Origin: Afipia sp.
Lineage (GTDB): Bacteria; Pseudomonadota; Alphaproteobacteria; Rhizobiales; Xanthobacteraceae
NCBI GenBank assembly: GCA_016201045.1
Contig: JACQDM010000001.1
Span: 605,617 to 669,616, forward strand
DNA length: 64,000 bases
Direction: 5' to 3'
The notes beneath the pieces are model-generated. The model was given only the letters and a program-made list of their open reading frames with translations, ran no database searches and was not told where the DNA came from. Below are positions 29,591 to 45,792 of this stretch, in pieces. The translations under genes were made by a program, and so were the position numbers. Positions within the stretch are counted from its first letter, which is position 1; every line of letters starts with the position of its first letter.

Positions 29591-30544
29591 ATGGTTGAGG
29601 TGCGCCTCGGCAATTCACAGAACGGCGCGGTTCAGGCAGCGGTCGGAAAAAGCCGCAAGCTGGCTGCGCGCGTACCGCGGCTCATTCTGGAGGCGAGGCG
29701 CGTTGCCGCGACCGTGATCCACGGTCTTCACGGGAGGAGGCGCGCGGGAACGGGCGAAAATTTTTGGCAATACCGGCGCTTCGTCAATGGCGAACCGTCC
29801 CACAATGTCGATTGGCGGCGATCCGCCCGCGACGACCATCTCTATGTTCGCGAGCGCGAATGGGAATCGTCGCACACGATATGGCTTTGGGTCGACCGTT
29901 CGCCGTCGATGGATTTCAATTCGCATCTCACCGAATGGAGCAAGCTCGACCGCTCGCTGGTTGTTGCATTTGCTCTGGCAGAAGTGCTGGTGCAAGGCGG
30001 TGAACGCGTCGGGATCCCGGGACTGATGAGACCGACCGCCAATCGCAACGTCATCGAAACGATGGCGCAGGTAATCGTGCACGATACCGGCGAACAACCA
30101 AGTCTGCCGCCGAACTTTGCTCCGGCTCCATTCTCCGAGGTTCTGCTGTTGTCGGATTTCTGGAGTCCGATACCGGAATTTCGGCGTTCGATCGGAAAAC
30201 TTGCCGCAAACGGCGCGCGCGGCCACGTTGTTCAGGTTGTCGATCCCGCGGAAGAGAGCTTTCCCTATTCGGGACGAGTCGAATTTGTCGAGCCGGAAGG
30301 ATTTGGCAGCATAACCGCCGGGCGCGCCGAGCGATGGCGGACGGACTATCAGAACCTGGTTGCCAACCACCGCACGACACTGCGTGAAGAAGCTGAGCAG
30401 TTTGGCTGGAGCTTCACCGTTCACCGGACTGACCGGGGACCGACGGAACTATTGTTCGCCGTTCACGGACGGATGGGTGCCGGCGCTCACGCCATTCTCA
30501 ACAACCGCCGGACCGCGCGAACCGATGCGAGCAAGCGCGCATGA
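29591..30544 (+). CDS. DUF58 family protein
   Basis: GENFWQYR, VDWRRSA, VREREWE, VDRSPSM, LLSDF. Confidence 0.9.
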   Translation: MVEVRLGNSQNGAVQAAVGKSRKLAARVPRLILEARRVAATVIHGLHGRRRAGTGENFWQYRRFVNGEPSHNVDWRRSARDDHLYVREREWESSHTIWLWVDRSPSMDFNSHLTEWSKLDRSLVVAFALAEVLVQGGERVGIPGLMRPTANRNVIETMAQVIVHDTGEQPSLPPNFAPAPFSEVLLLSDFWSPIPEFRRSIGKLAANGARGHVVQVVDPAEESFPYSGRVEFVEPEGFGSITAGRAERWRTDYQNLVANHRTTLREEAEQFGWSFTVHRTDRGPTELLFAVHGRMGAGAHAILNNRRTARTDASKRA

Positions 30545-33384
30545 TCGCCGGCTTGCCGCTGACATTCGCAGAGCCCCTGCTTCTGATCGGATTGCTGAGC
30601 CTTCCGGCATTGTGGTGGCTGTTACGCGTGATGCCGCCGAGGCCGAGGCGTATCGACTTTCCGCCGACACGTTTGCTGTTCGACATTTCGCCAAAGGAAG
30701 AAACGCCGTCGCGCACACCGTGGTGGCTGACGGCCTTGCGTTTACTCGCAGCGGCACTCGTGATCTTCGCCGCTGCAGGACCGATCTGGAATCCGGCCGA
30801 AGGCGTCGGTCGCGCCAATGGTCCGCTCGTTCTGCTTGTCGATGATGGATGGAGTGCGGCCGCGAGCTGGGACACTCGCGTCCGCGCCGCGGATGAGTTG
30901 ATCGCCAACGCAGACTCCGACCGCCGCGCCGTTGCGATCGTGCCGCTGTCCGAGACTGCGAAGGACATCACGCTGATGCCTGCGGGTACGGCGCGCGTGG
31001 CACTTCGTCAGCTTTCGCCCAAGCCATATTCGGTGGACCGGGTCGATGCCTTGCCATCCCTGGCGAATTTTCTGGCGGCGACTAAAGACACCGACATCGT
31101 CTGGCTGAGCGACGGCGTCGATACCGGACGCGGTAGCGAGTTTGTCGAGGATCTGGCCAAGACGGTTGGAGATCGGTCGCTGACCGTTCTGGAAGGCGGC
31201 ACGCCATCCGCGCATGCGCTCGCCGCCGCCGAAAACGCTGCGGCCAAGATGACGGTGAAGGTCTTGCGTGCCGCTGGCGGCGCGACAGATATCGGCATCG
31301 TGCGTGCGCTCGATCAGAAAGGCTCACCGATCGGCGAGGCCAATTTCAGCTTCGGCGTGCAGGACACAGACACCGACGCAAACTTCGAGTTACCCGTCGA
31401 ACTGCGCAACGACATCGCGCGGCTGGAAATTGCCGGCGAGCGCTCGGCGGGCGCTGTGCAACTGCTCGACAAGCGCTGGCGACGCCGCGCCATCGGGATC
31501 GTCTCCGGCTCATCGTCCGACACCGCACAACCGCTACTCGCTTCGACGTTCTATTTGACACGTGCGCTCGCGCCATTCGCGGACGTTCGCCTCGCCGAAC
31601 GCGGCGCGCCCGCTACGGCCATCGGTCAATTCCTCGATCAGAAACTGCCGATGATCATTCTTGCGGATGTCGGCACGTTGTCGCCGGAAATTCGCGACCG
31701 GCTCAACGCATGGATCGATCAGGGCGGGGTTCTCGTTCGCTTCGCAGGGCCACGCCTCGCGGCTGGCGACGACGATCTGGTGCCGGTTCGCCTTCGCCGC
31801 GGCGGCCGAAGCCTTGGCGGCACGCTCACATGGGAAAAGCCGCAGCCGCTTGCAAACTTCGCCGGAGACGGTCCGTTTGCCGGTCTTGCGGTGCCAAAGG
31901 AAATCACCGTCACCCGACAGGTCCTGGCTGAGCCGGACCCAACATTAGCGTCGCGAAGCTGGGCGTCGCTCGCCGACGGCACGCCGCTGGTCACCGGCGA
32001 ACATCGGAACAAAGGCGTCGTTGTGCTGTTCCACGTCAGCGCCGATATGCGCTGGTCGAATTTGCCGTTGTCTGGCACCTTTGTCGAAATGCTGCGGCGA
32101 GTCGTCGACATGTCCGGCTACACAGCAAAGGAAGGTGCGGGCGTTGCCGTAAATTCGGCAGTTGATACGGTTGCGCCGGTGCGGACCCTCGACGGGTTCG
32201 GCGCATTCGTTCCACCGCCTTCGACCGCGAAGCCGATCCTCGCAGATTATCGCGATCGCGCGTCGCCCGATCATCCTCCCGGATTTTACGGACCTGCAGA
32301 CGGACCGCTGGCAGTTAATACGCTCGCTGCAGCCGACCGTCTTGCGTCGCTCGATACGTCGGCGCTGAACGCCCGGCGCGCGACCTACACAAATTCCGAG
32401 CCACGCGATCTGCGCGGCATTCTGCTCTCGGTTGCGCTTATTCTTTTTCTTGCAGATGCGGTCATTGTCGCCATTCTTGGCGGCGGGCTATTGGCACTGC
32501 TGCGACGACGCAGCGTTGCTGTCGCGGTCACGCTGGCGTTGGCTTTGTCGTCGATCATTGCCCCACCCTCATCCCTCCGCGCGCAGACCGCAAAACCCGC
32601 TGCGAAAACAACAACCCAATCGCCTTCGGACGACTTCGCCATCAAGGCTGTTGCGCAAACGCGTCTTGCCTACGTCGTCACCGGCAACACCGACGTCGAT
32701 TCCATCGTGAAGGCCGGTATGTCGGGACTGACATTGTTTCTTGCACAGCGTACTGCGCTCGAAGCGGGCGAACCCATCGGCGTCGATCCGGCACGCGATG
32801 AACTTGCATTCTTCCCGCTGATTTACTGGCCGGTTATTTCAGGCGCAGCGAAACCGTCGCAAGAAGCCATCAACCGCCTTGACGCCTACATGAAACAGGG
32901 CGGAACCGTGCTGTTCGACACGCGCGATGCAGTCGAAGCATCGCCGGGCGGTGAATCGCAGACACCCGGAATGCTGACCTTGCGCAACATTTTATCGTCG
33001 CTCGATATTCCGGAGCTCGAGCCGGTGCCGCGCGATCACGTGCTGACGAAGACGTTCTATCTTTTGCGCGACTTCCCCGGCCGCTTCGAATCCGGACAGA
33101 CCTGGGTGGAAGCGCTTCCGCGCAACGAAGACGACGACAACGCCGATCGCCCGGTACGCGGCGGCGATGGTGTCTCGCCGATCATCATCACGTCGAACGA
33201 TCTTGCGGGAGCATGGGCGATGCGCCCGGACGGTCAACCCATGCTGCCGTTGACGCCGGGTGAACCGCGACAGCGCGAATTCGCGTTTCGCGCGGGCGTC
33301 AACATCGTGATGTACACGTTGACCGGAAACTACAAGGCCGATCAGGTTCACGCACCCGCCCTCATCGAACGCTTGGGCCAATAA
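30541..33384 (+). CDS. Membrane protein with N-terminal BatA motif, vWA-like region and C-terminal DUF4159
   Basis: FPPTRLL (BatA-like), LLVDDGWSAAAS, C-terminal YWP...GG.VLFDT...NDLAGAW...GVNIVMY.LTGNYK.DQ. Confidence 0.8.
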   Translation: MIAGLPLTFAEPLLLIGLLSLPALWWLLRVMPPRPRRIDFPPTRLLFDISPKEETPSRTPWWLTALRLLAAALVIFAAAGPIWNPAEGVGRANGPLVLLVDDGWSAAASWDTRVRAADELIANADSDRRAVAIVPLSETAKDITLMPAGTARVALRQLSPKPYSVDRVDALPSLANFLAATKDTDIVWLSDGVDTGRGSEFVEDLAKTVGDRSLTVLEGGTPSAHALAAAENAAAKMTVKVLRAAGGATDIGIVRALDQKGSPIGEANFSFGVQDTDTDANFELPVELRNDIARLEIAGERSAGAVQLLDKRWRRRAIGIVSGSSSDTAQPLLASTFYLTRALAPFADVRLAERGAPATAIGQFLDQKLPMIILADVGTLSPEIRDRLNAWIDQGGVLVRFAGPRLAAGDDDLVPVRLRRGGRSLGGTLTWEKPQPLANFAGDGPFAGLAVPKEITVTRQVLAEPDPTLASRSWASLADGTPLVTGEHRNKGVVVLFHVSADMRWSNLPLSGTFVEMLRRVVDMSGYTAKEGAGVAVNSAVDTVAPVRTLDGFGAFVPPPSTAKPILADYRDRASPDHPPGFYGPADGPLAVNTLAAADRLASLDTSALNARRATYTNSEPRDLRGILLSVALILFLADAVIVAILGGGLLALLRRRSVAVAVTLALALSSIIAPPSSLRAQTAKPAAKTTTQSPSDDFAIKAVAQTRLAYVVTGNTDVDSIVKAGMSGLTLFLAQRTALEAGEPIGVDPARDELAFFPLIYWPVISGAAKPSQEAINRLDAYMKQGGTVLFDTRDAVEASPGGESQTPGMLTLRNILSSLDIPELEPVPRDHVLTKTFYLLRDFPGRFESGQTWVEALPRNEDDDNADRPVRGGDGVSPIIITSNDLAGAWAMRPDGQPMLPLTPGEPRQREFAFRAGVNIVMYTLTGNYKADQVHAPALIERLGQ

Positions 33385-33385
33385 A

Positions 33386-35449
33386 ATGCAATACGGTATC
33401 GCGTTTGCACCTCTCGTCCCCGCGGTGGCGCTATGGCTCGCGCTGGCGGCAATCGTCGTTATCGCTGCAGCCTTGTTCGCCGCCCGCGCACGAGGTGCCG
33501 CGGTGCGCGCCGGGGCGCTTGCGCTATTCCTGCTGGCGCTCGCGAATCCATCCTTCACGCGCGAGGAACGCGAACCGCTAACGTCTGTCGCGGCGGTTAT
33601 CGTCGATCGTAGCCCCAGTCAGAATTTCGGAGACCGCACGCGTGAAACCGACGCAGCGCGCGACGCACTTGTTGCCAAGCTCAAAGACATCAAAGGTTTG
33701 GAGGTTCGCGTCGTCGAAGCCGGTTTAGCTGACGGCGAAACCGACGGAACGAAACTCTTTTCGGCCGTCACCGCGACATTGTCGGACGTGCCGACGGATC
33801 GAGTTGCAGGCGCGTTCCTCATTACCGACGGACGCGTCCACGACATTCCCGCCAGTGCATCTGCCGTCGGATTCAACGCGCCAGTGCACGCGCTGATCAC
33901 AGGACGCAGCGACGAGCGTGACCGGCGCATTGCGATAGTCGCGGCACCTCGTTTCGGAATCGTTGGGCGCCCGCAGACCCTCACCTATCGGCTCGACGAT
34001 CAGGGCGTGACTGGAGAATCTGCGCGCGTGACGGTGCGGCGCGACGGCGATGTTCTCAGCGAACGGGCGGTCGCAAGCGGCGAGCAAGTCAATGTCACCA
34101 TCGATATTCCGCACGCCGGGCCGAACATCGTTGAAATCGAGGCATCGAAACTCGATGGTGAGTTGACGCCGGTGAACAACCGCGCAGTTGTTTCCATCGA
34201 CGGCGTGCGCGACAAGCTCCGCGTGCTGCTGGTATCCGGCGAACCCCACGCCGGCGAACGCACATGGCGCAACCTTCTGAAATCCGACGCCAGCGTCGAT
34301 CTTGTACATTTCACGATTCTACGGCCGCCCGAAAAGCAGGACGGAACGCCGATCAACGAATTGTCGCTGATCGCCTTTCCCACGCGCGAATTGTTTCAAC
34401 AAAAGATCGACGAGTTTCAGCTCATCATCTTCGATCGCTATGCGCGCCAGGGCGTTTTGCCGATCTCCTATTTCGACAATATCACCCGGTACGTCCGGAA
34501 CGGAGGCGCCGTTCTCGTATCAGCAGGACCCGATTACGCCAGCTCGACAAGCATCTGGCGCACACCGCTCGACTCTGTGCTGCCTGCCGAACCCGTTGGT
34601 GTAACCGAGCAGGCTTTCACCGCACGGCTCTCAGATATCGGCAAACGCCATCCGGTCACGCGCGGTCTCGAAGGCTCCGCCAGCGAACCGCCTCATTGGA
34701 GCCGTTTCTTTCGCCTTGTCGATACGCGAAATCCGACCGTTCCTCCGGTGATGGAGGGTGCCGACGGCAAGCCCCTCTTACTATTGTCGCGGCAAGGTGA
34801 AGGCCGCGTCGCGCTGTTGCTCTCCGATCAGATCTGGCTCTGGGCGCGCGGCTACGAAGGCGGCGGGCCGCACCTCGATCTGCTGCGGCGGATATCGCAC
34901 TGGCTCATGAAGCAGCCGGACCTCGACGAAGAAGCATTGCGATTGAAGGTCGAGGGCCGCGACCTCGTTGTGGTGCGCCAGACGATGTCGGACACTGCCG
35001 CGCCGGTGACAATTACTTCTCCTTCCGGCGCTACGCGCCAACTCGATCTCAAATCTGGCGATAGCGGAGAATGGCGCGCATCCACCGTTGCGGATGAACT
35101 CGGTCTGTGGCAAGCGACGGACGGCACACTGAAAGCTCTCATCAATGTCGGACCGATCAACCCGAAGGAATTTTCAGAAGTCACTTCGACGACGGAAACG
35201 CTGAAGCCACTGCTGCAGGCAACCGGCGGCGACGTGCGGCGCGTTGCGGAAAGCGGAAAAATCGAACTTCCGAGCATTCTGCCGGTTCGCGCGTCGTCAG
35301 TCTTTCGCGGCGAAGGCTGGTTCGGCGTGAAAATGCGCGATGTCAGCGTCGTGCGAGGTATCGGCGTGCTGCCGATTTTTGCCGGGCTTTTTGGACTGCT
35401 TCTTCTGCTCGGCGCGTTCGCTTCAACGTGGCTACGCGAGGGACGCTAG
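33386..35449 (+). CDS. Membrane protein with vWA-like and glutamine-amidotransferase-like domains
   Basis: N- and C-terminal TM helices, VDRSPSQ, LITDG, VLLVSGEPH...RNLLKSD..VDLVHFTILRPP; last gene of the MoxR operon. Confidence 0.75.
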   Translation: MQYGIAFAPLVPAVALWLALAAIVVIAAALFAARARGAAVRAGALALFLLALANPSFTREEREPLTSVAAVIVDRSPSQNFGDRTRETDAARDALVAKLKDIKGLEVRVVEAGLADGETDGTKLFSAVTATLSDVPTDRVAGAFLITDGRVHDIPASASAVGFNAPVHALITGRSDERDRRIAIVAAPRFGIVGRPQTLTYRLDDQGVTGESARVTVRRDGDVLSERAVASGEQVNVTIDIPHAGPNIVEIEASKLDGELTPVNNRAVVSIDGVRDKLRVLLVSGEPHAGERTWRNLLKSDASVDLVHFTILRPPEKQDGTPINELSLIAFPTRELFQQKIDEFQLIIFDRYARQGVLPISYFDNITRYVRNGGAVLVSAGPDYASSTSIWRTPLDSVLPAEPVGVTEQAFTARLSDIGKRHPVTRGLEGSASEPPHWSRFFRLVDTRNPTVPPVMEGADGKPLLLLSRQGEGRVALLLSDQIWLWARGYEGGGPHLDLLRRISHWLMKQPDLDEEALRLKVEGRDLVVVRQTMSDTAAPVTITSPSGATRQLDLKSGDSGEWRASTVADELGLWQATDGTLKALINVGPINPKEFSEVTSTTETLKPLLQATGGDVRRVAESGKIELPSILPVRASSVFRGEGWFGVKMRDVSVVRGIGVLPIFAGLFGLLLLLGAFASTWLREGR

Positions 35450-35502
35450 GCGTCACGCGTCCGCCAATTCGCAGCCTTGACTCCGATGTACATGAACGGC
35501 AG

Positions 35503-35517
35503 TGTTATATTGTAACG
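35503..35517. promoter_or_regulatory. Zur-box-like palindrome
   Basis: TGTTATATTGTAACG versus Zur consensus TGTTATANTATAACA (2 mismatches); overlaps a TATATT -10-like hexamer. Confidence 0.6.
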
Positions 35518-35563
35518 TTTGGAACCCGCCGACGGGTCTATCCAAATGAGGCGGGCGCTTTTT

Positions 35564-35926
35564 ATGACGTGGTTGCGTGCGAGGACGAGAAAGTTATCTC
35601 TGCTGGCGCTGTTTGCGCTGGCAATTCAGTTCGGCCTGTCGTTCGGTCACGTTCATCATGAGCGAGCGCTGTTTGGCAAATCGGCGATCTTCGCAAGCGT
35701 TGCTTCTCCTGTATCCCCTGACTCCGGCAACGACACTGACAATCGCACCGATCAGTGCGCGATTTGCGCCACTATTGCGATCGCCAACGCGCTCATCGGC
35801 TCGCTGCCTCCCGTTCTGCAGCTTCCGGCGATTGTTGCAGCGACGGAAATCCTGCCAGTAGCCGTAACGCACGACGCGACAGTGTATTCGCTCGGCTTTA
35901 GGTCGCGCGCGCCTCCTCAATCCTGA
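35564..35926 (+). CDS. DUF2946 (CruR-like) protein with CXXC and C-terminal RAPP motif
   Basis: Signal-like N-terminus, HVHH, CAIC, Pro-rich spacer, ends FRSRAPPQS; upstream of a TonB receptor; alternative ATG at 35546. Confidence 0.82.
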   Translation: MTWLRARTRKLSLLALFALAIQFGLSFGHVHHERALFGKSAIFASVASPVSPDSGNDTDNRTDQCAICATIAIANALIGSLPPVLQLPAIVAATEILPVAVTHDATVYSLGFRSRAPPQS

Positions 35927-36036
35927 CTCGAGAATAGATTCATCCAGCCAATCGCATCGCGATAGGCCGGAATTTTCGGGACCAAGACCGCCAATGCCGG
36001 CGGCGAGCTGCGCCAAGCGCATCGGGATGAAGGGTA

Positions 36037-38334
36037 ATGTCGTACAGATCAAATAGAGCCTTGCGGTTGAGCGGTTCGCTCGCCGTGCTCGCGTTCGGAA
36101 TGAGCGGCGGCGCATATGCGCAGTCGCCTGCGCCTGAATCGCCAAGCGCAAACGAGTTGCCGGAAATCGTCGTCCGCGCGCCGCCTCCTCCCGTGCATCG
36201 GCGGCGGCCGCCAGCCGCGCCTTCCGCAGACGCTTCGTCCGGCGCGCCTCCTTCGCCTGCTGACAATGGCGCGGCCCAGCCCGGCGTTCTGCCGATCGTC
36301 ACCGATCAATATGCGACTATAACGACCGTTACCAACGATGAAATCCGGCGCAGCGCCGCTTCTACGTTGGGCGATCTTCTCAACAACAAACCCGGTGTAA
36401 CAGGATCATCGTTTGCGCCCGGCGCTTCGAGCAGACCGATTATCCGCGGTCTCGACGCCAACAGGGTCGGCATCGTCGAAAACGGGACCAGCAGCAACGG
36501 CGCATCGGACTTGGGAGAAGATCATTTCGTTCCGATCGACCCGCTTTCAACCAATCAGGTCGAAGTCATTCGCGGACCCGCAGCGCTGCGCTACGGTTCG
36601 CAAGCCGTCGGTGGCGTGGTCAGCGCCACCAATAACCGGATTCCAGACGCGCTGACATGCGGCGGAACCAGTTCGGGACAAAATCCCTGCACGGCATTCG
36701 AGACACGAAGCGCACTGTCGAGCGTCGATCTCGGCCGTGAAGGCGGCGCACTTCTGGACGCAGCCGGCAACAGCGTCGCGATCCACGCCGACGCGTTCGA
36801 CCGAAAAACAGAAAACTACAGCATTCCGAGCTATCCCTATCGGTTCGATCCGACCCGCGCGTTCAACGGTCAGCAGCCGAACTCAGCGACGCAAAGCAGC
36901 GGCGCTTCGATCGGCGGCTCCTATTTCTTTATGGGCGGATTTGTCGGTGCAGCGATCACGCAGAATAACTCGCTCTATCACATCCCCGGGATCGACGGCG
37001 AAGACCACAACACACGCATCGATGCCAAACAGACCAAGATTACGGCGAAAGGCGAATACAGGCCGGATTCGCCCGCCATCGACACGATTAAATTCTGGGC
37101 CGGCGCGACCGACTACAAACACAATGAAATCGGTCTGCTCGATCCGGCGAATTTTGCTTCCGACGGTGTGCGTCAGACCTTTACCAACAAGGAACAGGAA
37201 GGCCGCGTCGAGGTCCAGCTTACGCCGTTCAACCTTCGCTTTGCCGCGCTGACCACGGCACTTGGAGTTCAGGCCTCGCACCAGGAATTGACAGCACCGA
37301 GCCCGGACGATCCCGGTACGCAATTCAACGGCCTGTGGGATCCAAACCACAACACAAAGATTGCGGGTTATGCCTTCAACGAGTTCAAGTTCAGCGATTC
37401 CACGAAGGCACAATTGGCCGGGCGCATCGAACATGTCGATCTGAGCGGAATGACGCCGCAATTTCCGGCGAGCTTCAACGGAGCCGATCCTGTCGGACCG
37501 ACTGTGTCGCGCAATCCGAATTTCACACCGAAAAGCGGTAGCGTCGGCGTGATCCAGAATTTACCGCATGCCCTGTCGGCGAGCCTGACCGCGCAATACG
37601 TCGAACGCGCACCCAAACCAGCCGAACTCTTTTCACGCGGCGGCCACGATGCGACCGGCACTTTCGATATCGGCGATCCCAATCTGAAAATCGAAACCGC
37701 AAAGACCGTTGAAGCCGGGCTACGGCGAGCAACCGGACCGATCCGCTTTGAACTCACAGGCTACTACACGCGCTTCGACGGCTTTATCTTCCGCCGATTG
37801 ACAGGGCTCATGTGCGACGGCGATTTCGCGTCATGCGGTACGACAGGCACGGAGCTGAAACAGGCGATCTACTCGCAGCGCGATGCGATATTCCGCGGCG
37901 GCGAATTCCAGTTTCAATACGACGTCATGCCGATATGGTCAGGCACCTTCGGCATTGAAGGGCAGTACGACATCGTCCGCGCCACATTCACCGACGGCAC
38001 CAACGTTCCGCGCATCCCCCCGCAGCGAGTCGGCGGCGGACTTTTCTACCGCGACGCCCATTGGCTCGCGCGAGTCAATCTGCTCCATGCTTTCGCGCAA
38101 AACGATACTAGCGCGGCGGAGACGTCGACTCCGGGTTACAATCGTCTGAAAGCCGAAGTCAGCTATACGACAAAGCTCGCGAAAGACAGTTGGCTAGGAC
38201 CGCGCGAATTCACGTTCGGTCTTGCCGGTGACAATCTGCTCAACGAAGATATCCGCAATTCCGTCTCCTACAGCAAAGACGAGGTTCTGCTACCCGGCAT
38301 CGGCGTGCGTATGTTTGCAAATGTGAAGTACTGA
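36037..38334 (+). CDS. TonB-dependent receptor, ZnuD-like
   Basis: Signal peptide, TonB box PEIVVRA, plug motifs RPIIRGLD, DLGEDHFV, VEVIRGPAALRYGS; C-terminal barrel NLLNE...PG. Confidence 0.9.
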   Translation: MSYRSNRALRLSGSLAVLAFGMSGGAYAQSPAPESPSANELPEIVVRAPPPPVHRRRPPAAPSADASSGAPPSPADNGAAQPGVLPIVTDQYATITTVTNDEIRRSAASTLGDLLNNKPGVTGSSFAPGASSRPIIRGLDANRVGIVENGTSSNGASDLGEDHFVPIDPLSTNQVEVIRGPAALRYGSQAVGGVVSATNNRIPDALTCGGTSSGQNPCTAFETRSALSSVDLGREGGALLDAAGNSVAIHADAFDRKTENYSIPSYPYRFDPTRAFNGQQPNSATQSSGASIGGSYFFMGGFVGAAITQNNSLYHIPGIDGEDHNTRIDAKQTKITAKGEYRPDSPAIDTIKFWAGATDYKHNEIGLLDPANFASDGVRQTFTNKEQEGRVEVQLTPFNLRFAALTTALGVQASHQELTAPSPDDPGTQFNGLWDPNHNTKIAGYAFNEFKFSDSTKAQLAGRIEHVDLSGMTPQFPASFNGADPVGPTVSRNPNFTPKSGSVGVIQNLPHALSASLTAQYVERAPKPAELFSRGGHDATGTFDIGDPNLKIETAKTVEAGLRRATGPIRFELTGYYTRFDGFIFRRLTGLMCDGDFASCGTTGTELKQAIYSQRDAIFRGGEFQFQYDVMPIWSGTFGIEGQYDIVRATFTDGTNVPRIPPQRVGGGLFYRDAHWLARVNLLHAFAQNDTSAAETSTPGYNRLKAEVSYTTKLAKDSWLGPREFTFGLAGDNLLNEDIRNSVSYSKDEVLLPGIGVRMFANVKY

Positions 38335-38350
38335 GTGTGTGGAGATCGAA

Positions 38351-38863
38351 CTAACTTGCAGTCGCCCAATCGGGACGGATGGCACCTTTGATCCCGTCAG
38401 CCGCGCCGCTCTGCAGTTCGCACGCGAGCAGTCGCGCCGGGTCGACTGGACCTGGCATCGACACAGCGCCTTTTGGAATCTGTTTGAAACCGGCGCGGCC
38501 GTAATACGGCTCATCACCGACGAGGACGACGAGGCGATGACCCTTCGCCTTGGCGCCTTTCAATGCGCGTTCGATCAGCGCCTTCGCAATACCTCGGCCG
38601 CGAAACGGCGGCTCGACAGTCAGCGGGCCGAGCAAAAGTGCCGGCGTATCGCCGATGCAAATCGGCAGCAGGCGGACCGAGCCGACCAAAAGCGTACCGA
38701 TGCGCGCCGTGAATGACAGATCCAGAATATGTTCGATCTGTTCACGCAATCGGTAAGCACTAAGCACATAGCGTCCTGGCCCGAACGTGCGCTCGTGCAG
38801 GCGTTCGATGGCCTGCGCATCGTTTACGGATTCAGTCGAGATCGTGAGAGATAGATCGGTCAT
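38351..38863 (-). CDS. GNAT family N-acetyltransferase
   Basis: LLGPLTVEPPFRGRGIAKALI, LVGDEPYYGRAGF. Confidence 0.9.
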   Translation of the reverse strand: MTDLSLTISTESVNDAQAIERLHERTFGPGRYVLSAYRLREQIEHILDLSFTARIGTLLVGSVRLLPICIGDTPALLLGPLTVEPPFRGRGIAKALIERALKGAKAKGHRLVVLVGDEPYYGRAGFKQIPKGAVSMPGPVDPARLLACELQSGAADGIKGAIRPDWATAS

Positions 38864-42547: not shown

Positions 42548-44185
42548 TTAGCCGAACTGGTTCATCGTATTGTGAGCGCCGCCCGCCTTGAGAGCCGCTT
42601 CACCCGCGAAGTATTCCTTGTGGTCGTCACCGATGTCGGAGCCGGCCATGTTCTGGTGCTTCGCGCAGGCGATGCCTTGGCGAATTTCCGCACGCTGAAC
42701 GTTCTTGACGTATCCGAGCATGCCCTGGTCGCCGAAATATTCCTTCGAGAGGTTGTCGGTCGACAGCGCAGCCGTGTGATAGGTCGGCAACGTAATCAGG
42801 TGGTGGAAGATGCCGGCGCGCTTGGACGCGTCCGCCTGGAAGGTGCGGATGCGTTCGTCGGCTTCCTTAGCCAGCGGCGTGTCGTCATATTCGACCTTCA
42901 TCAGGTCGGCGCGATTGTACTTGCTGACGTCCTTACCCTCTGCCTTCCACGCGTCGTAAACCTGCCAGCGGAAGTTCAGCGTCCAGTTGAACGACGGCGA
43001 GTTGTTGTAAGCGAGCTTTGCATTCGGAATGACCTTGCGGATGCGATCGACCATTCCAGCAACCTGTTCGATATGCGGCTTCTCGGTTTCGATCCACAGC
43101 AGGTCAGCACCGTTCTGCAGCGAGGTGATGCTGTCGAGCACACAGCGATCTTCGCCCGTGCCGGCACGGAATTGATACAGATTGCTCGGCAGACGCTTTG
43201 GACGAAGCAGCTTGCCGTTGCGGCTGATGATGACATCGCCGTTGCCGACCTTCGATGCGTCGACTTCGTCGCAATCGAGGAAGCTGTTGTACTGATCGCC
43301 AAGATCGCCCGGCTTCTGGCTGACAGCGATCTGCTGCGTCAAACCAGCGCCCAGTGAGTCGGTGCGGGTGACGATGATGCCGTCTTCGACGCCGAGTTCG
43401 AGGAATGCGTGGCGGCATGCACGTATCTTCGCAAGGAAGACGTCATGCGGAACGGTCACCTTGCCGTCCTGATGGCCGCACTGCTTCTCGTCCGACACTT
43501 GATTTTCGATCTGAAGCGCACCTGCGCCCGCTTCGATCATCTTCTTGGCGAGCAGATAGGTTGCCTCGGCATTGCCGAAGCCCGCGTCGATGTCGGCGAT
43601 GACCGGAACAACATGGGTCTGGAAGTTGTCGATCTTTTCGATCGCCTTTGCTTCCTTCGCCTTGTCGCCAGCCTCACGCGCAGCGTCGAGCTCGCGGAAG
43701 ATGTCGTTGAGTTCACGCGAGTCGGCCTGACGCAGGAACGTATAAAGTTCCTCGATCAAAGCTGGCACCGAGGTCTTCTCATGCATCGACTGATCGGGTA
43801 GCGGCCCGAACTGCGAGCGCAGCGCCGCGATCATCCAGCCCGACAGATACAGATAGCGGCGGTCGGTCTTGCCGCCGAAATGCTTCTTGATCGAGATCAG
43901 CTTCTGCTGGGCAATAAAGCCGTGCCAGCAGCCGAGCGACTGGGTGTACTTGGTCGGGTCCGCGTCGTAGGCGGCCATATCCGCGCGCATCAGCGCAGCG
44001 GTGTAACGCGCAACGTCCAGACCCGTCTTGAAACGGTTCTGCAGGCGCATGCGTGCGACCGCCTCGGCGGTGACGCCATTCCAAGTCGGCTTGTCCTTGA
44101 GCAGGGCTTCGGCAGCCTTGATCTCGCTCTGATAGGACGACGGGCCTTGGATTGCGTATTCGGTGTTGCGCGTCTGGTAATTCAT
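42548..44185 (-). CDS. aceA: Isocitrate lyase (long form)
   Basis: LYLSGWM, PVIADIDAGFG, QIENQVSDEKQCGHQDGK, LWIET, YNNSPSFNW. Confidence 0.96.
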   Translation of the reverse strand: MNYQTRNTEYAIQGPSSYQSEIKAAEALLKDKPTWNGVTAEAVARMRLQNRFKTGLDVARYTAALMRADMAAYDADPTKYTQSLGCWHGFIAQQKLISIKKHFGGKTDRRYLYLSGWMIAALRSQFGPLPDQSMHEKTSVPALIEELYTFLRQADSRELNDIFRELDAAREAGDKAKEAKAIEKIDNFQTHVVPVIADIDAGFGNAEATYLLAKKMIEAGAGALQIENQVSDEKQCGHQDGKVTVPHDVFLAKIRACRHAFLELGVEDGIIVTRTDSLGAGLTQQIAVSQKPGDLGDQYNSFLDCDEVDASKVGNGDVIISRNGKLLRPKRLPSNLYQFRAGTGEDRCVLDSITSLQNGADLLWIETEKPHIEQVAGMVDRIRKVIPNAKLAYNNSPSFNWTLNFRWQVYDAWKAEGKDVSKYNRADLMKVEYDDTPLAKEADERIRTFQADASKRAGIFHHLITLPTYHTAALSTDNLSKEYFGDQGMLGYVKNVQRAEIRQGIACAKHQNMAGSDIGDDHKEYFAGEAALKAGGAHNTMNQFG

Positions 44186-44343
44186 TTGTCCCTCACATTC
44201 GTGACACTGCGTCTGCGAAACGTGACGGAAGATAAACGCCGGAATCAGTTATTCGTACAGATAGCTTGTAATTGAATGGTGATATGTTGTATCATCACGA
44301 CATGTCACAGATGTTATTTTGTAATTTTTGTCACAAATAGCCT

Positions 44344-45792
44344 ATGGCCGACACAGGAAAAAAGCTGTTTGTGGGTCCCCGCTTCCGGCGGATACGGCAG
44401 CAGCTGGGTGTGTCGCAGACCCAGATGGCCGAGGCGCTGGGGATTTCCCCAAGCTATATCAACCTCATAGAACGCAATCAGCGCCCGGTTACGGCGCAGA
44501 TATTGCTGCGGCTGGCCGAGACCTACGACCTCGATTTACGCGATCTTGCGACCGCCGACGAAGATCGCTTCTTCGCCGAGCTCAATGAAATCTTCTCCGA
44601 CCCCCTGTTCCGGCAGATCGACCTGCCCAAGCAGGAGCTGCGCGACCTCGCCGAACTTTGCCCCGGCGTCACCCATTCCCTGCAACGGCTTTACGCGGCC
44701 TATACCGAAGCCCGCCGCAGCGAGACGATGGTCGCAGCGCAATTCGCGGACCGCGATGAGGGCGTAGGCGCGCGCTACGAGGGCAATCCGATCGAGCGGG
44801 TGCGCGACCTGATCGAAGCCAATCGCAATTATTTTCCCGAACTGGAAACAGCAGCCGAGAAGCTGTGCGACGGCATCGATCTTTCCTCGCAGGATCTGTT
44901 TACGGCGCTCTCCACGCGGTTGCGCGAGAAGCATTCGACCGTCGTGCGGATCATGCCTGTCGATGTCATGCGCGAGACGTTGCGCCGCTGGGACCGCCAT
45001 CGCCGGCAGCTGCTGATCTCCGAACTGGTCGATGCGCCCGGCCGCGCCTTCCAGCTCGCGATCCAGATCGCGCTTTCGGAGAACGGTACCGTCATCGACA
45101 GCATTGTCGCGCGCGGCGGCCCGCTCGACGATACGCCGCGCAGGCTTTACCGCATCACACTGGCAAACTATTTCGCGGCGGCCGTGATGATGCCCTATCA
45201 GGCGTTTCATTCTGCCGCCGAAGCACTCGGTTACGACCTGCAGGTGCTGGGACAGCGCTTCAATGTCGGCCTCGAGCAGATTTGCCACCGGCTGACCACG
45301 CTGCAACGGCCGAACGCGCGCGGTGTGCCGTTCTTCATGCTGCGTGTCGACAACGCCGGTAACGTCTCCAAGCGATTTTCGTCGGGCACGTTTCCGTTCT
45401 CGAAATTCGGCGGGACATGCCCGTTGTGGAACGTGCACTCGACGTTCGACACACCAGACCGGATGCTGCAGCAGGTTGTCGAATTGCCGGATGGCAGCCG
45501 TTACTTCTCGATTGCGCAGATGCTGCGGCGTCCTGCCGCGCCTTATCCGCAGCCGCAGCCGCGCTTTGCGATCGGGCTTGGCTGCGAAATACGCCATGCT
45601 TCGAAGCTCGTTTACGCCAGCGGTCTCGATCTCGAAAAGGTTCAGGGAACGCCGATTGGCGTGAATTGCCGTCTGTGCGAGCGGGAGAACTGCAGCCAGC
45701 GGGCCGAGCCGCCGTTGACCCGCACCTTGATCCTCGACGAGAATACGCGCCGCGTGTCGTCGTTCTCGTTCAGCAATGCGCGGGAATTGTAG
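44344..45792 (+). CDS. XRE-family short-chain fatty acyl-CoA regulator (RamB/ScfR type)
   Basis: HTH (GISPSYINLIERNQRP), IrrE-like middle domain, RVDNAGNVSKRFS, GGTCPLWNVH, IGVNCRLCERENCSQRA; divergent from aceA. Confidence 0.9.
   Translation: MADTGKKLFVGPRFRRIRQQLGVSQTQMAEALGISPSYINLIERNQRPVTAQILLRLAETYDLDLRDLATADEDRFFAELNEIFSDPLFRQIDLPKQELRDLAELCPGVTHSLQRLYAAYTEARRSETMVAAQFADRDEGVGARYEGNPIERVRDLIEANRNYFPELETAAEKLCDGIDLSSQDLFTALSTRLREKHSTVVRIMPVDVMRETLRRWDRHRRQLLISELVDAPGRAFQLAIQIALSENGTVIDSIVARGGPLDDTPRRLYRITLANYFAAAVMMPYQAFHSAAEALGYDLQVLGQRFNVGLEQICHRLTTLQRPNARGVPFFMLRVDNAGNVSKRFSSGTFPFSKFGGTCPLWNVHSTFDTPDRMLQQVVELPDGSRYFSIAQMLRRPAAPYPQPQPRFAIGLGCEIRHASKLVYASGLDLEKVQGTPIGVNCRLCERENCSQRAEPPLTRTLILDENTRRVSSFSFSNAREL

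Follow-up and report, generated by a model that had tools for sequence, protein, structure and literature searches.

In Bordetella pertussis, CruR (Bp2923), the product of an upstream open reading frame (uORF) of the DUF2946 family, controls the receptor BfrG (PMC9426467). The RAPP motif of CruR, its CXXC motif and their spacing are experimentally required for copper control, the hallmarks given by Roy et al. being the CXXC, a RAPP three residues from the end, a 45-residue spacing that tolerates changes of only +/-2, an export signal, the first place in the operon and a long spacer (PMC9426467). Toeprinting of the CruR arrest placed the two proline codons in the P and A sites of the ribosome (PMC12992588). 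Here we describe a related arrangement in 64,000 nucleotides of Afipia sp. DNA (contig JACQDM010000001.1, positions 605,617 to 669,616; hereafter the window), in which a 120-residue DUF2946 leader peptide is encoded upstream of a TonB-dependent receptor of the ZnuD-like subfamily. Coordinates are those of the window, and features lie on the forward (+) strand except where stated. From sequence comparison and by analogy with CruR, we consider it probable that this two-gene operon carries two stacked metal checks, in which Zur would gate transcription and a metal-relieved stall at RAPP would keep the receptor on.

The window locus shares with cruR the Pfam family of the leader, an export signal, a CXXC motif 45-46 residues before a C-terminal RAPP, the position of the leader as first gene of the operon, a C>G bubble over the 3′ part of the leader and a long structured spacer leading to a TonB-dependent receptor (110 nt here, 162 nt in Bordetella). 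Unlike cruR, it has a Zur operator on the promoter, a ZnuD-like receptor and no PepSY or other third gene; its RAPP lies 2 rather than 3 residues from the C-terminus, FGHxH is invariant in its subfamily, which also has an Asp/His-rich stretch, and the stop region of the leader is complementary to the receptor ribosome-binding site. The arrest motif also resembles those of SecM-secA and MifM-yidC2, in which arrest occurs at R-A-(G/P)-P near the C-terminus with force-dependent release and the stalled ribosome is thought to remodel a downstream mRNA structure that hides the next ribosome-binding site; these peptides differ in that they monitor the export machinery rather than a metal, and they share no homology with the leader outside the arrest motif. 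The closest match of the receptor over plug and barrel is the Zur-regulated ZnuD of Neisseria meningitidis (4rdr, NF038289). To our knowledge, no leader peptide is known for znuD.

CutF of Rhodobacter capsulatus, a DUF2946-like protein of the cutFOG operon, is likewise an exported nascent leader that combines a metal motif with a Pro-rich stall sequence at its C-terminus, and it requires its signal peptide and EF-P; however, it is the copper-bound form of CutF that stalls, thereby switching on a detoxifying oxidase, whereas an importer needs the opposite, a stall without metal (PMC9973294; bioRxiv 10.1101/2025.02.05.636593). The Zur regulon of Caulobacter crescentus contains both elements: Zur boxes (GATGTTATATCATAACAAT) overlap the -10 of the receptor genes znuK and znuL, and the first gene of a zinc operon, CC2720, belongs to DUF2946 and has a Zur-binding site. 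Yet that operon is the Zur-activated efflux operon czrCBA-zntA, CC2720 was not interpreted as a uORF, and the Zur-repressed receptors were not reported with a DUF2946 leader (PMC4176598). In Pseudomonas aeruginosa, the DUF2946-receptor pair PA0433-PA0434 rises with the Zur regulon under N-acetylcysteine, though it is not marked as Zur-regulon in the source table. The literature searched contains no paper combining CruR, Zur and TonB-dependent receptors, and nothing relevant was retrieved for Bradyrhizobium and Zur; relative to this literature, the systematic coupling of a DUF2946 leader to a Zur operator and to ZnuD-like receptors is new.

The leader ORF (35564-35926; Pfam PF11162 and direct reading, with a script check) codes for a peptide that reads MTWLRARTRKLSLLALFALAIQFGLSFGHVHHERALF...DQCAICATIAIANALIGSLPPVLQLPAIVAATEILPVAVTHDATVYSLGFRSRAPPQS*. 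Although an alternative in-frame ATG exists at 35546, the start at 35564 is the correct one given that all orthologues begin with MxW[LF]R, and the N-terminus accordingly reads MTWLRARTRK. The peptide scored 25.9 bits against Pfam DUF2946 (PF11162; gathering score 23.7) over model positions 4-117 of 117, and 3337 homologues were retrieved at E <= 0.001. Direct reading places a hydrophobic export signal or signal anchor of 17 residues (LSLLALFALAIQFGLSF, 35594-35644) after R5, R7, R9 and K10; this hydrophobic N-terminus is the most conserved block of the family in alignment A1. It is followed by HVHH (residues 29-32, 35648-35659), an instance of the FGHxH motif whose H29 and H31 are invariant in alignment A1, by the CXXC metal-binding motif CAIC (residues 65-68, 35756-35767), whose C65 and C68 are invariant in 30 homologues, and by the RAPP arrest motif (residues 115-118, 35906-35917; CGC GCG CCT CCT), after which come only Gln, Ser and TGA. 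Conservation across the 30 aligned homologues is concentrated in the hydrophobic N-terminus together with FGHxH, in D-x-CAIC, in PP-x-L-x-LP and in F-x-SRAPP, and the sequence in between is variable. The leader is alone among the ORFs of the 64-kb window in having R[AG]PP at its end.

The geometry of the two motifs is equally constrained. The gap between CXXC and RAPP is 46 residues in the window leader and 45 in CruR; about 50 orthologues have a gap of 46 and a tail of 2 residues after RAPP. Among 147 family representatives clustered at 50% identity, the gap is 45-47 in all 134 that carry both motifs, FGHxH is found in about 137, the arrest motif is RAPP in 117 and RGPP in 19, and the tail is 2 residues long in 117 of the 136 that have an arrest motif. 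Counts and statistics over loci, here and below, ignore shared ancestry, as the loci are not phylogenetically independent. Every sequence-level feature that marks the DUF2946/CruR family was thus found in the leader, which we assign to it on these grounds. The first-pass annotation of the window, made from the letters alone, had read the ORF as a CruR-like leader from its export-like N-terminus, its HVHH and CAIC motifs and the RAPP that lies two codons short of the stop, and this reading holds in full: the DUF2946 score, the CXXC, the C-terminal RAPP, the family spacing, the first place in the operon, the structured spacer and the receptor all agree with it.

A few relatives depart from this pattern. 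Natural variants in which RAPP is lost or shifted relative to the stop, with frameshifted or extended C-termini, occur at loci L032, L054, L055, L057 and L051 and in protein P0079; the leader of L055 has a tail of 5 after RAPP, and at L032, L054 and L057 only a shortened receptor ORF could be called, so that these loci are possible natural experiments on leader loss. Two distant RGPP leaders without a Zur box precede an ExbB-family gene (L036, 5001-6362) and a NicO nickel transporter gene (L053, 5001-7391), other outgroup leaders without a Zur box preceding receptors. This suggests, at the level of sequence, that the arrest-leader design has been reused for other metals or for the TonB energising complex.

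The receptor gene (36037-38334) codes for a 765-residue protein with Pfam Plug and TonB_dep_Rec_b-barrel domains, of the ZnuD-like subfamily ('class A'), and its ATG lies exactly 110 nt beyond the leader stop. Since the next gene, coding for a GNAT acetyltransferase, is convergent, the operon consists of two genes, leader then receptor; the layout of leader, intergenic region and receptor is the same in 52 related loci. The best family match of the receptor is ZnuD NF038289 (NCBIfam), at 222.5 bits and hence far below the equivalog cutoff of 950, while the OprC/NosA copper receptor model TIGR01778 gave 53.3 bits, also below its cutoff (472). The best solved structure is ZnuD PDB 4rdr (E = 2.6e-39, aligned residues 94-748). 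This alignment skips ZnuD chain residues 260-318, which we take to be its His-rich surface loop, and the window receptor has only a short GIDGEDHNTRID there. The earlier label 'ZnuD-like importer' therefore stands at subfamily level and fails at equivalog level.

Upstream of the leader, a -35-like hexamer TTGACT (35477-35482; TTGACA in orthologues), conserved in nearly all related loci, is followed by a Zur-box-like palindrome, AGTGTTATATTGTAACGTT (35501-35519, no strand assigned; read as an orthologue footprint), with the core GTTA-N5-TAAC at 35504-35516. When the orthologues are aligned on their leader starts, a conserved TTGACA is separated by 17 nt of unconstrained sequence from a 19-bp palindrome, GATGTTATA-N-TATAACATC; the hexamer-to-palindrome distance is 18 nt in the window, one more than in the orthologues, and the distance from palindrome to leader ATG is 44 nt, against 40-55 nt in the orthologues. 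GTTA-N5-TAAC occurs only once in the 64-kb window, and the window palindrome differs from the 15-mer TGTTAYANTRTAACA by 1 mismatch. In public genomes the 19-mer lies in the znuA/znuC divergent promoters of Photobacterium, Vibrio and Xenorhabdus, at a zur-znuA pair, at a COG0523 (cobW-type) gene in Bradyrhizobium and at zinT in Enterobacter, the identities of these genes having been confirmed by Pfam. It also nearly equals the Caulobacter znuK site GATGTTATATCATAACAAT (PMC4176598). Given its presence at znuA/znuC, zur, zinT and COG0523 genes, the consensus palindrome is a canonical Zur operator.

Among 80 palindrome loci read, at least 31 have the palindrome directly upstream of a DUF2946 leader. 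We also counted the 15-mer (<= 2 mismatches) upstream of leaders in two locus sets, the first comprising 59 loci fetched from Afipia, Bradyrhizobium and relatives and the second more distant loci (Xanthobacteraceae, Pseudolabrys and others) found through the narrower alignment A4. It was present at 52 of 58 loci in set 1 and at 24 of 44 in set 2, against a background of at most 2% per 160 nt, and Zur boxes precede both receptor classes (A and B) found behind this leader. Cultivable bacteria that carry the module include Afipia broomeae ATCC 49717 (L012) and Afipia massiliensis (L033). A Zur layer at the leader promoter is thus strongly supported by sequence: the Zur-type layer that had been proposed is borne out by a canonical palindrome at a fixed position, and the co-occurrence of Zur boxes with pairs of DUF2946 leader and TonB-dependent receptor, put forward as a check on it, is borne out by the same counts. 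Two further Zur-like 15-mers in the window, at 44280 and 44312, were judged non-Zur, with 3 mismatches each and an AT-rich spacer. They lie in the AT-rich spacer 44260-44340 between an isocitrate-lyase-like gene (42548-44185, reverse strand) and the gene for a 482-residue XRE-type regulator (44344-45792), which holds repeated palindromic pieces (TGATATGTTGTATCA; TGTCACA...TGTCACAAA) that more probably constitute the operator of this regulator itself.

The 3′ end of the leader is constrained beyond its protein sequence. In 76 distinct leaders the final codon is TCC in all 32 that end in Ser, while TCC makes up 17% of the Ser codons of neighbouring receptor genes, and GCC in 29 of 32 that end in Ala (background 39%); the stop is TGA in 71 of the 76. 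Within RAPP, the Arg codon is CGC in 66 of 69 leaders, the first Pro codon is CCT or CCA in 52 of 69 (background 18%) and the Ala codon is GCT or GCA in 41 of 69 (background 20%). These counts are extreme, though shared ancestry is uncorrected. The skew fits an RNA role for the C-rich leader end, which mimics an anti-Shine-Dalgarno sequence.

The probable Shine-Dalgarno of the receptor is GGGA at 36023-36026, 10 nt 5′ of the ATG, within the zone UCGGGAUGAA (36022-36031; AUCAGGAUCA in orthologues, with a conserved CAGGAT); TCAGGA or TCAGGG precedes the receptor start at 53 of 88 distinct loci and the broader UYRGG at 59. Folding, carried out over about 190 nt and with the usual uncertainty of such predictions, pointed to AUCCUGA (35920-35926), which runs from the second base of the Gln codon through the Ser codon to the stop, as the main partner of this zone: in the minimum-free-energy fold of the window it pairs with UCGGGAU (36022-36028) with a probability of about 1 in free mRNA. 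The corresponding CCUGA::UCAGG helix also appears in the consensus that RNAalifold gave for 16 Afipia-type orthologues, in which 92% of cells pair in this register, compared with 17-44% when the register is slid. The Shine-Dalgarno core is 80% paired over 46 loci, mostly with the stop region (mean probability 0.53).

The stop-region helix encloses a stem-loop CUCGAGAAU::AUUUUCGGG with an inner hairpin straight after the stop (35927-35980; minimum-free-energy fold) and two small predicted hairpins, CCGCC::GGCGG and UGCGC::GCGCA, just 5′ of the Shine-Dalgarno (35988-36021). An equivalent CTCGAAT...ATTCGAG stem is conserved in Afipia-type orthologues, as is a GCCGCC...GGCGGC hairpin in orthologues. 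The 161-nt region folds modestly better than shuffled sequences (z = -1.87). The covariation term of the consensus folds is near zero, Bradyrhizobium-type spacers gave local hairpins only, and the consensus fold of class-B spacers, whose alignments are poor, showed no structure. A C>G bubble at 35690-35960 (78-nt sliding window, composition only), in which C exceeds G by up to 15 points, is a candidate Rho-utilisation (rut) region; the C excess of the orthologues is greatest between -60 and +15 relative to the stop of the leader. By its composition the bubble resembles the rut-containing C>G bubble of cruR. A scan of 35300-38600 for sigma-70 promoters and terminators found no promoter at the leader and no intrinsic terminator, and an Rfam 15 covariance-model scan of 35300-36300, up to E = 1, matched no riboswitch or leader RNA family.

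We propose the following course of events. A Zur operator overlapping the -10 region of the promoter, a placement suggested by the comparative evidence, would allow transcription only at low cytoplasmic zinc. A ribosome translating the leader would then, by homology with CruR, stall at RAPP with Pro117 and Pro118 in its P and A sites, respectively. A stalled ribosome shields mRNA to about +15 from the P site, so that with Pro117 (35912-35914) in that site it would cover the message to 35927-35928 and hence AUCCUGA in full; the C-rich end of the leader, which holds the Shine-Dalgarno partner of the naked mRNA, would thus be occupied. Masking this footprint raised the mean accessibility of the Shine-Dalgarno from 0.20 to 0.36 over 46 loci. 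For the duration of the stall, Rho would be kept off the C>G tract, the Shine-Dalgarno is predicted to be more accessible in most orthologues, and the receptor would be made. Metal binding to the emerged nascent chain, through H29, H31, the acidic stretch, C65 and C68 (the last lying 49 residues from the P site), would compact the chain and pull on it, which would release the stall and let translation of the leader terminate. The ribosome-binding site would then be sequestered again, Rho would terminate transcription and receptor synthesis would end. The arrest, the involvement of Rho and the metal-triggered release are all inferred by analogy; the logic would be that of CruR, in which a stall means 'on', as suits an importer.

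Several observations weigh against this model, and some of them feed alternatives to its two layers. On the transcriptional side, no standard -10 hexamer was found in the promoter scan at the leader, and the window Zur box is off consensus at 5 of 19 positions, all of them outside the GTTA/TAAC half-sites. Together with TTGACT in place of TTGACA and the extra nucleotide of spacing, this could mean that the window copy has decayed to a non-functional site and that the leader layer alone operates. We regard such decay as rather improbable, since the half-sites are intact, the 15-mer core has a single mismatch, the position is conserved and experimentally supported Caulobacter Zur sites, such as CCTGTTACAGAATAACAGG, are at least as divergent (PMC4176598). 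On the RNA side, the stop-region helix is without covariation, both of its sides being invariant. CCUGA is moreover kept at the leader stop where the receptor ribosome-binding site is not UCAGG, so that the constraint may equally well serve termination or arrest; an explanation of CCUGA purely by pairing with UCAGG is weakened by this persistence, and its role may lie in pairing, in termination context or in tRNA choice at the arrest. When the footprint (35898-35928) is masked at the window locus itself, the Shine-Dalgarno stays paired, now with UUCAUCC (35939-35945, pairing with 36025-36031 at a probability of 0.85-0.93 only under the mask), and because of this re-pairing translational unmasking is not predicted there. 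Finally, matches in public sequencing runs were groundwater and plastic metagenome DNA contigs only, with no RNA runs; the whole window was almost complete (0.86-0.95 of sampled words) only in three groundwater-metagenome DNA runs of one study, and its source is an uncultured member of the Nitrobacteraceae related to Afipia. The UUCAUCC segment is the one to which the first-pass annotation had drawn attention, and the complementarity it gave is exact, TTCATCC (35939-35945) being the reverse complement of GGATGAA (36025-36031) overlapping the receptor Shine-Dalgarno. If this stem were the regulated switch, it would be a default mask melted by a stalled or terminating ribosome, as in SecM-secA or CutF-cutO. 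About 4% of shuffled spacers contain a perfect 7-nt match of this kind to the Shine-Dalgarno zone, so that the complementarity is weak evidence alone; the 16 aligned orthologues retain a core of 4-5 bp, with 68% of cells pairing and one compensatory change, and cognate pairs are slightly more stable than non-cognate ones (permutation p = 0.012). However, a RAPP-stalled ribosome would reach only to about 35928, leaving a gap of 11 nt to the stem; the Shine-Dalgarno of free mRNA pairs with 35920-35926 instead; the zone holding UUCAUCC accounts for 0.06 of the Shine-Dalgarno pairing over the 46 loci, against the 0.53 of the stop region; and the predictions have the stem form while the ribosome is stalled, when an on-switch would require it to be open. 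We therefore think it unlikely that the stem is the switch: the helix exists, but the last codon of the leader and its stop are the better-supported partner, and in the folding models the helix behaves as an alternative rather than the primary one.

The metal that is sensed is the least certain step of the two-check model; we consider zinc, as the metal transported, the most likely ligand, perhaps promiscuously with copper. The two receptor classes behind this leader both stand under Zur boxes, the invariant H-x-H and C-x-x-C would make up a Cys2His2 ligand set, a leader normally senses what its own operon handles, and leaders behind Zur boxes are richer in His, Asp and Glu than the others over the 20 residues that precede CXXC (5.8 against 4.3; p = 1e-4, phylogeny uncorrected). 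Against zinc stand the lack of any His in the acidic stretch before the CXXC of the window leader and the presence of FGHxH in leaders without Zur boxes as well. A strict copper sensor like CruR would work differently: Zur would open transcription in zinc starvation, and copper on the CXXC would veto the receptor, blocking promiscuous copper import. FGHxH and CAIC occur equally in leaders behind Zur boxes and in leaders that lack them, so that the ligand set does not track the Zur context; CXXC is a classical Cu(I) motif, and Cys/His sites hold copper tighter than zinc (Irving-Williams series). The tested family members CruR and CutF respond to copper (PMC9426467, PMC9973294), the response of CruR, the sole dissected member linked to a TonB-dependent receptor, running through its CXXC (PMC9426467). 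The receptor, however, is nearest to ZnuD and not to the OprC family, no copper-homeostasis gene lies in or beside the operon, His and Asp are enriched in leaders behind Zur boxes, and not all DUF2946 proteins are copper-specific, as argued in PMC9973294, where some are proposed to bind nickel or cobalt. On balance a strict copper sensor seems possible but unlikely. Very unlikely, in our view, is a non-regulatory role in which the small protein would be exported and bind metal as a partner or chaperone of the receptor, its RAPP being incidental. An export signal with conserved His and Cys would suit such a protein, and DUF2946 genes show cofitness with their copper receptor in Pseudomonas fitness screens (bioRxiv 10.1101/072470), but RAPP keeps a near-invariant distance from both the stop and CXXC while the 40 intervening residues vary, the synonymous sites of the 3′ end are constrained, one leader clade precedes two unrelated receptor classes, and CruR acts in cis only, its mature protein being undetectable (PMC9426467). 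Returning to the metal-relieved stall, sensing may take place in the cytoplasm, as for CruR, or in the periplasm after Sec export, as for CutF. In its strongest and more speculative form, which we hold only tentatively, the leader would be a natural zinc-responsive arrest peptide, a portable module in which zinc, bound to a Cys2His2-type site (H29, H31, C65 and C68 with acidic residues) just beyond the tunnel exit or, after Sec export, in the periplasm, releases the RAPP stall.

The flanks were compared as well. At loci L001-L004 the neighbouring genes are the same on both sides, the 687-residue upstream protein being 92% and the GNAT protein 84-88% identical to those of the window; the receptor, in contrast, is unrelated, with 27% identity over the plug only. 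DNA similarity to these flank relatives extends through the promoter and into the leader, breaks off in its variable 3′ half at about 35828 (near codon 88) and is regained at 38361 in the GNAT gene, whereas similarity of the window to class-A loci covers 35901-35931 and 36271-38335. By this pattern the leader tail, the spacer and the receptor behave as an exchangeable cassette behind a resident promoter and leader head. The closest flank relatives overall (L001, L002, L004 and L180-L182) carry the unrelated receptor class behind the same promoter and leader.

Other features of the neighbourhood were noted. The 5′ untranslated region at 35520-35563 and its counterparts at L001-L059 contain conserved pieces (ATCTGGAAC..., CCGGATGGG... 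and GGGGCG) and often a short upstream ATG. Upstream of the operon, 30541-35449 code for a 947-residue BatA/DUF4159 protein and the 687-residue protein, which has no significant Pfam match; these genes of an aerotolerance-type cluster keep the same order in the related loci examined and are seemingly unrelated to metal uptake.

CruR-type leaders have so far been described as copper devices, with nickel or cobalt suggested for some relatives in one paper. In a large conserved alphaproteobacterial clade from soil and water (Afipia, Bradyrhizobium, Nitrobacter, Tardiphaga, Xanthobacteraceae), such a leader is found behind a canonical Zur operator and before ZnuD-like or other receptors, and the synonymous constraints at RAPP and at the stop add sequence-level detail on how the arrest site is built. 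If the proposed model is correct, it would extend arrest-peptide control to zinc acquisition and provide a natural case of transcriptional and co-translational metal checks stacked on one importer. Were copper the ligand, the leader would be a veto that keeps zinc-starved cells from importing copper; were it zinc, these bacteria would combine their cytoplasmic zinc status, read by Zur, with a second, co-translational and possibly periplasmic reading of zinc before the importer is built.

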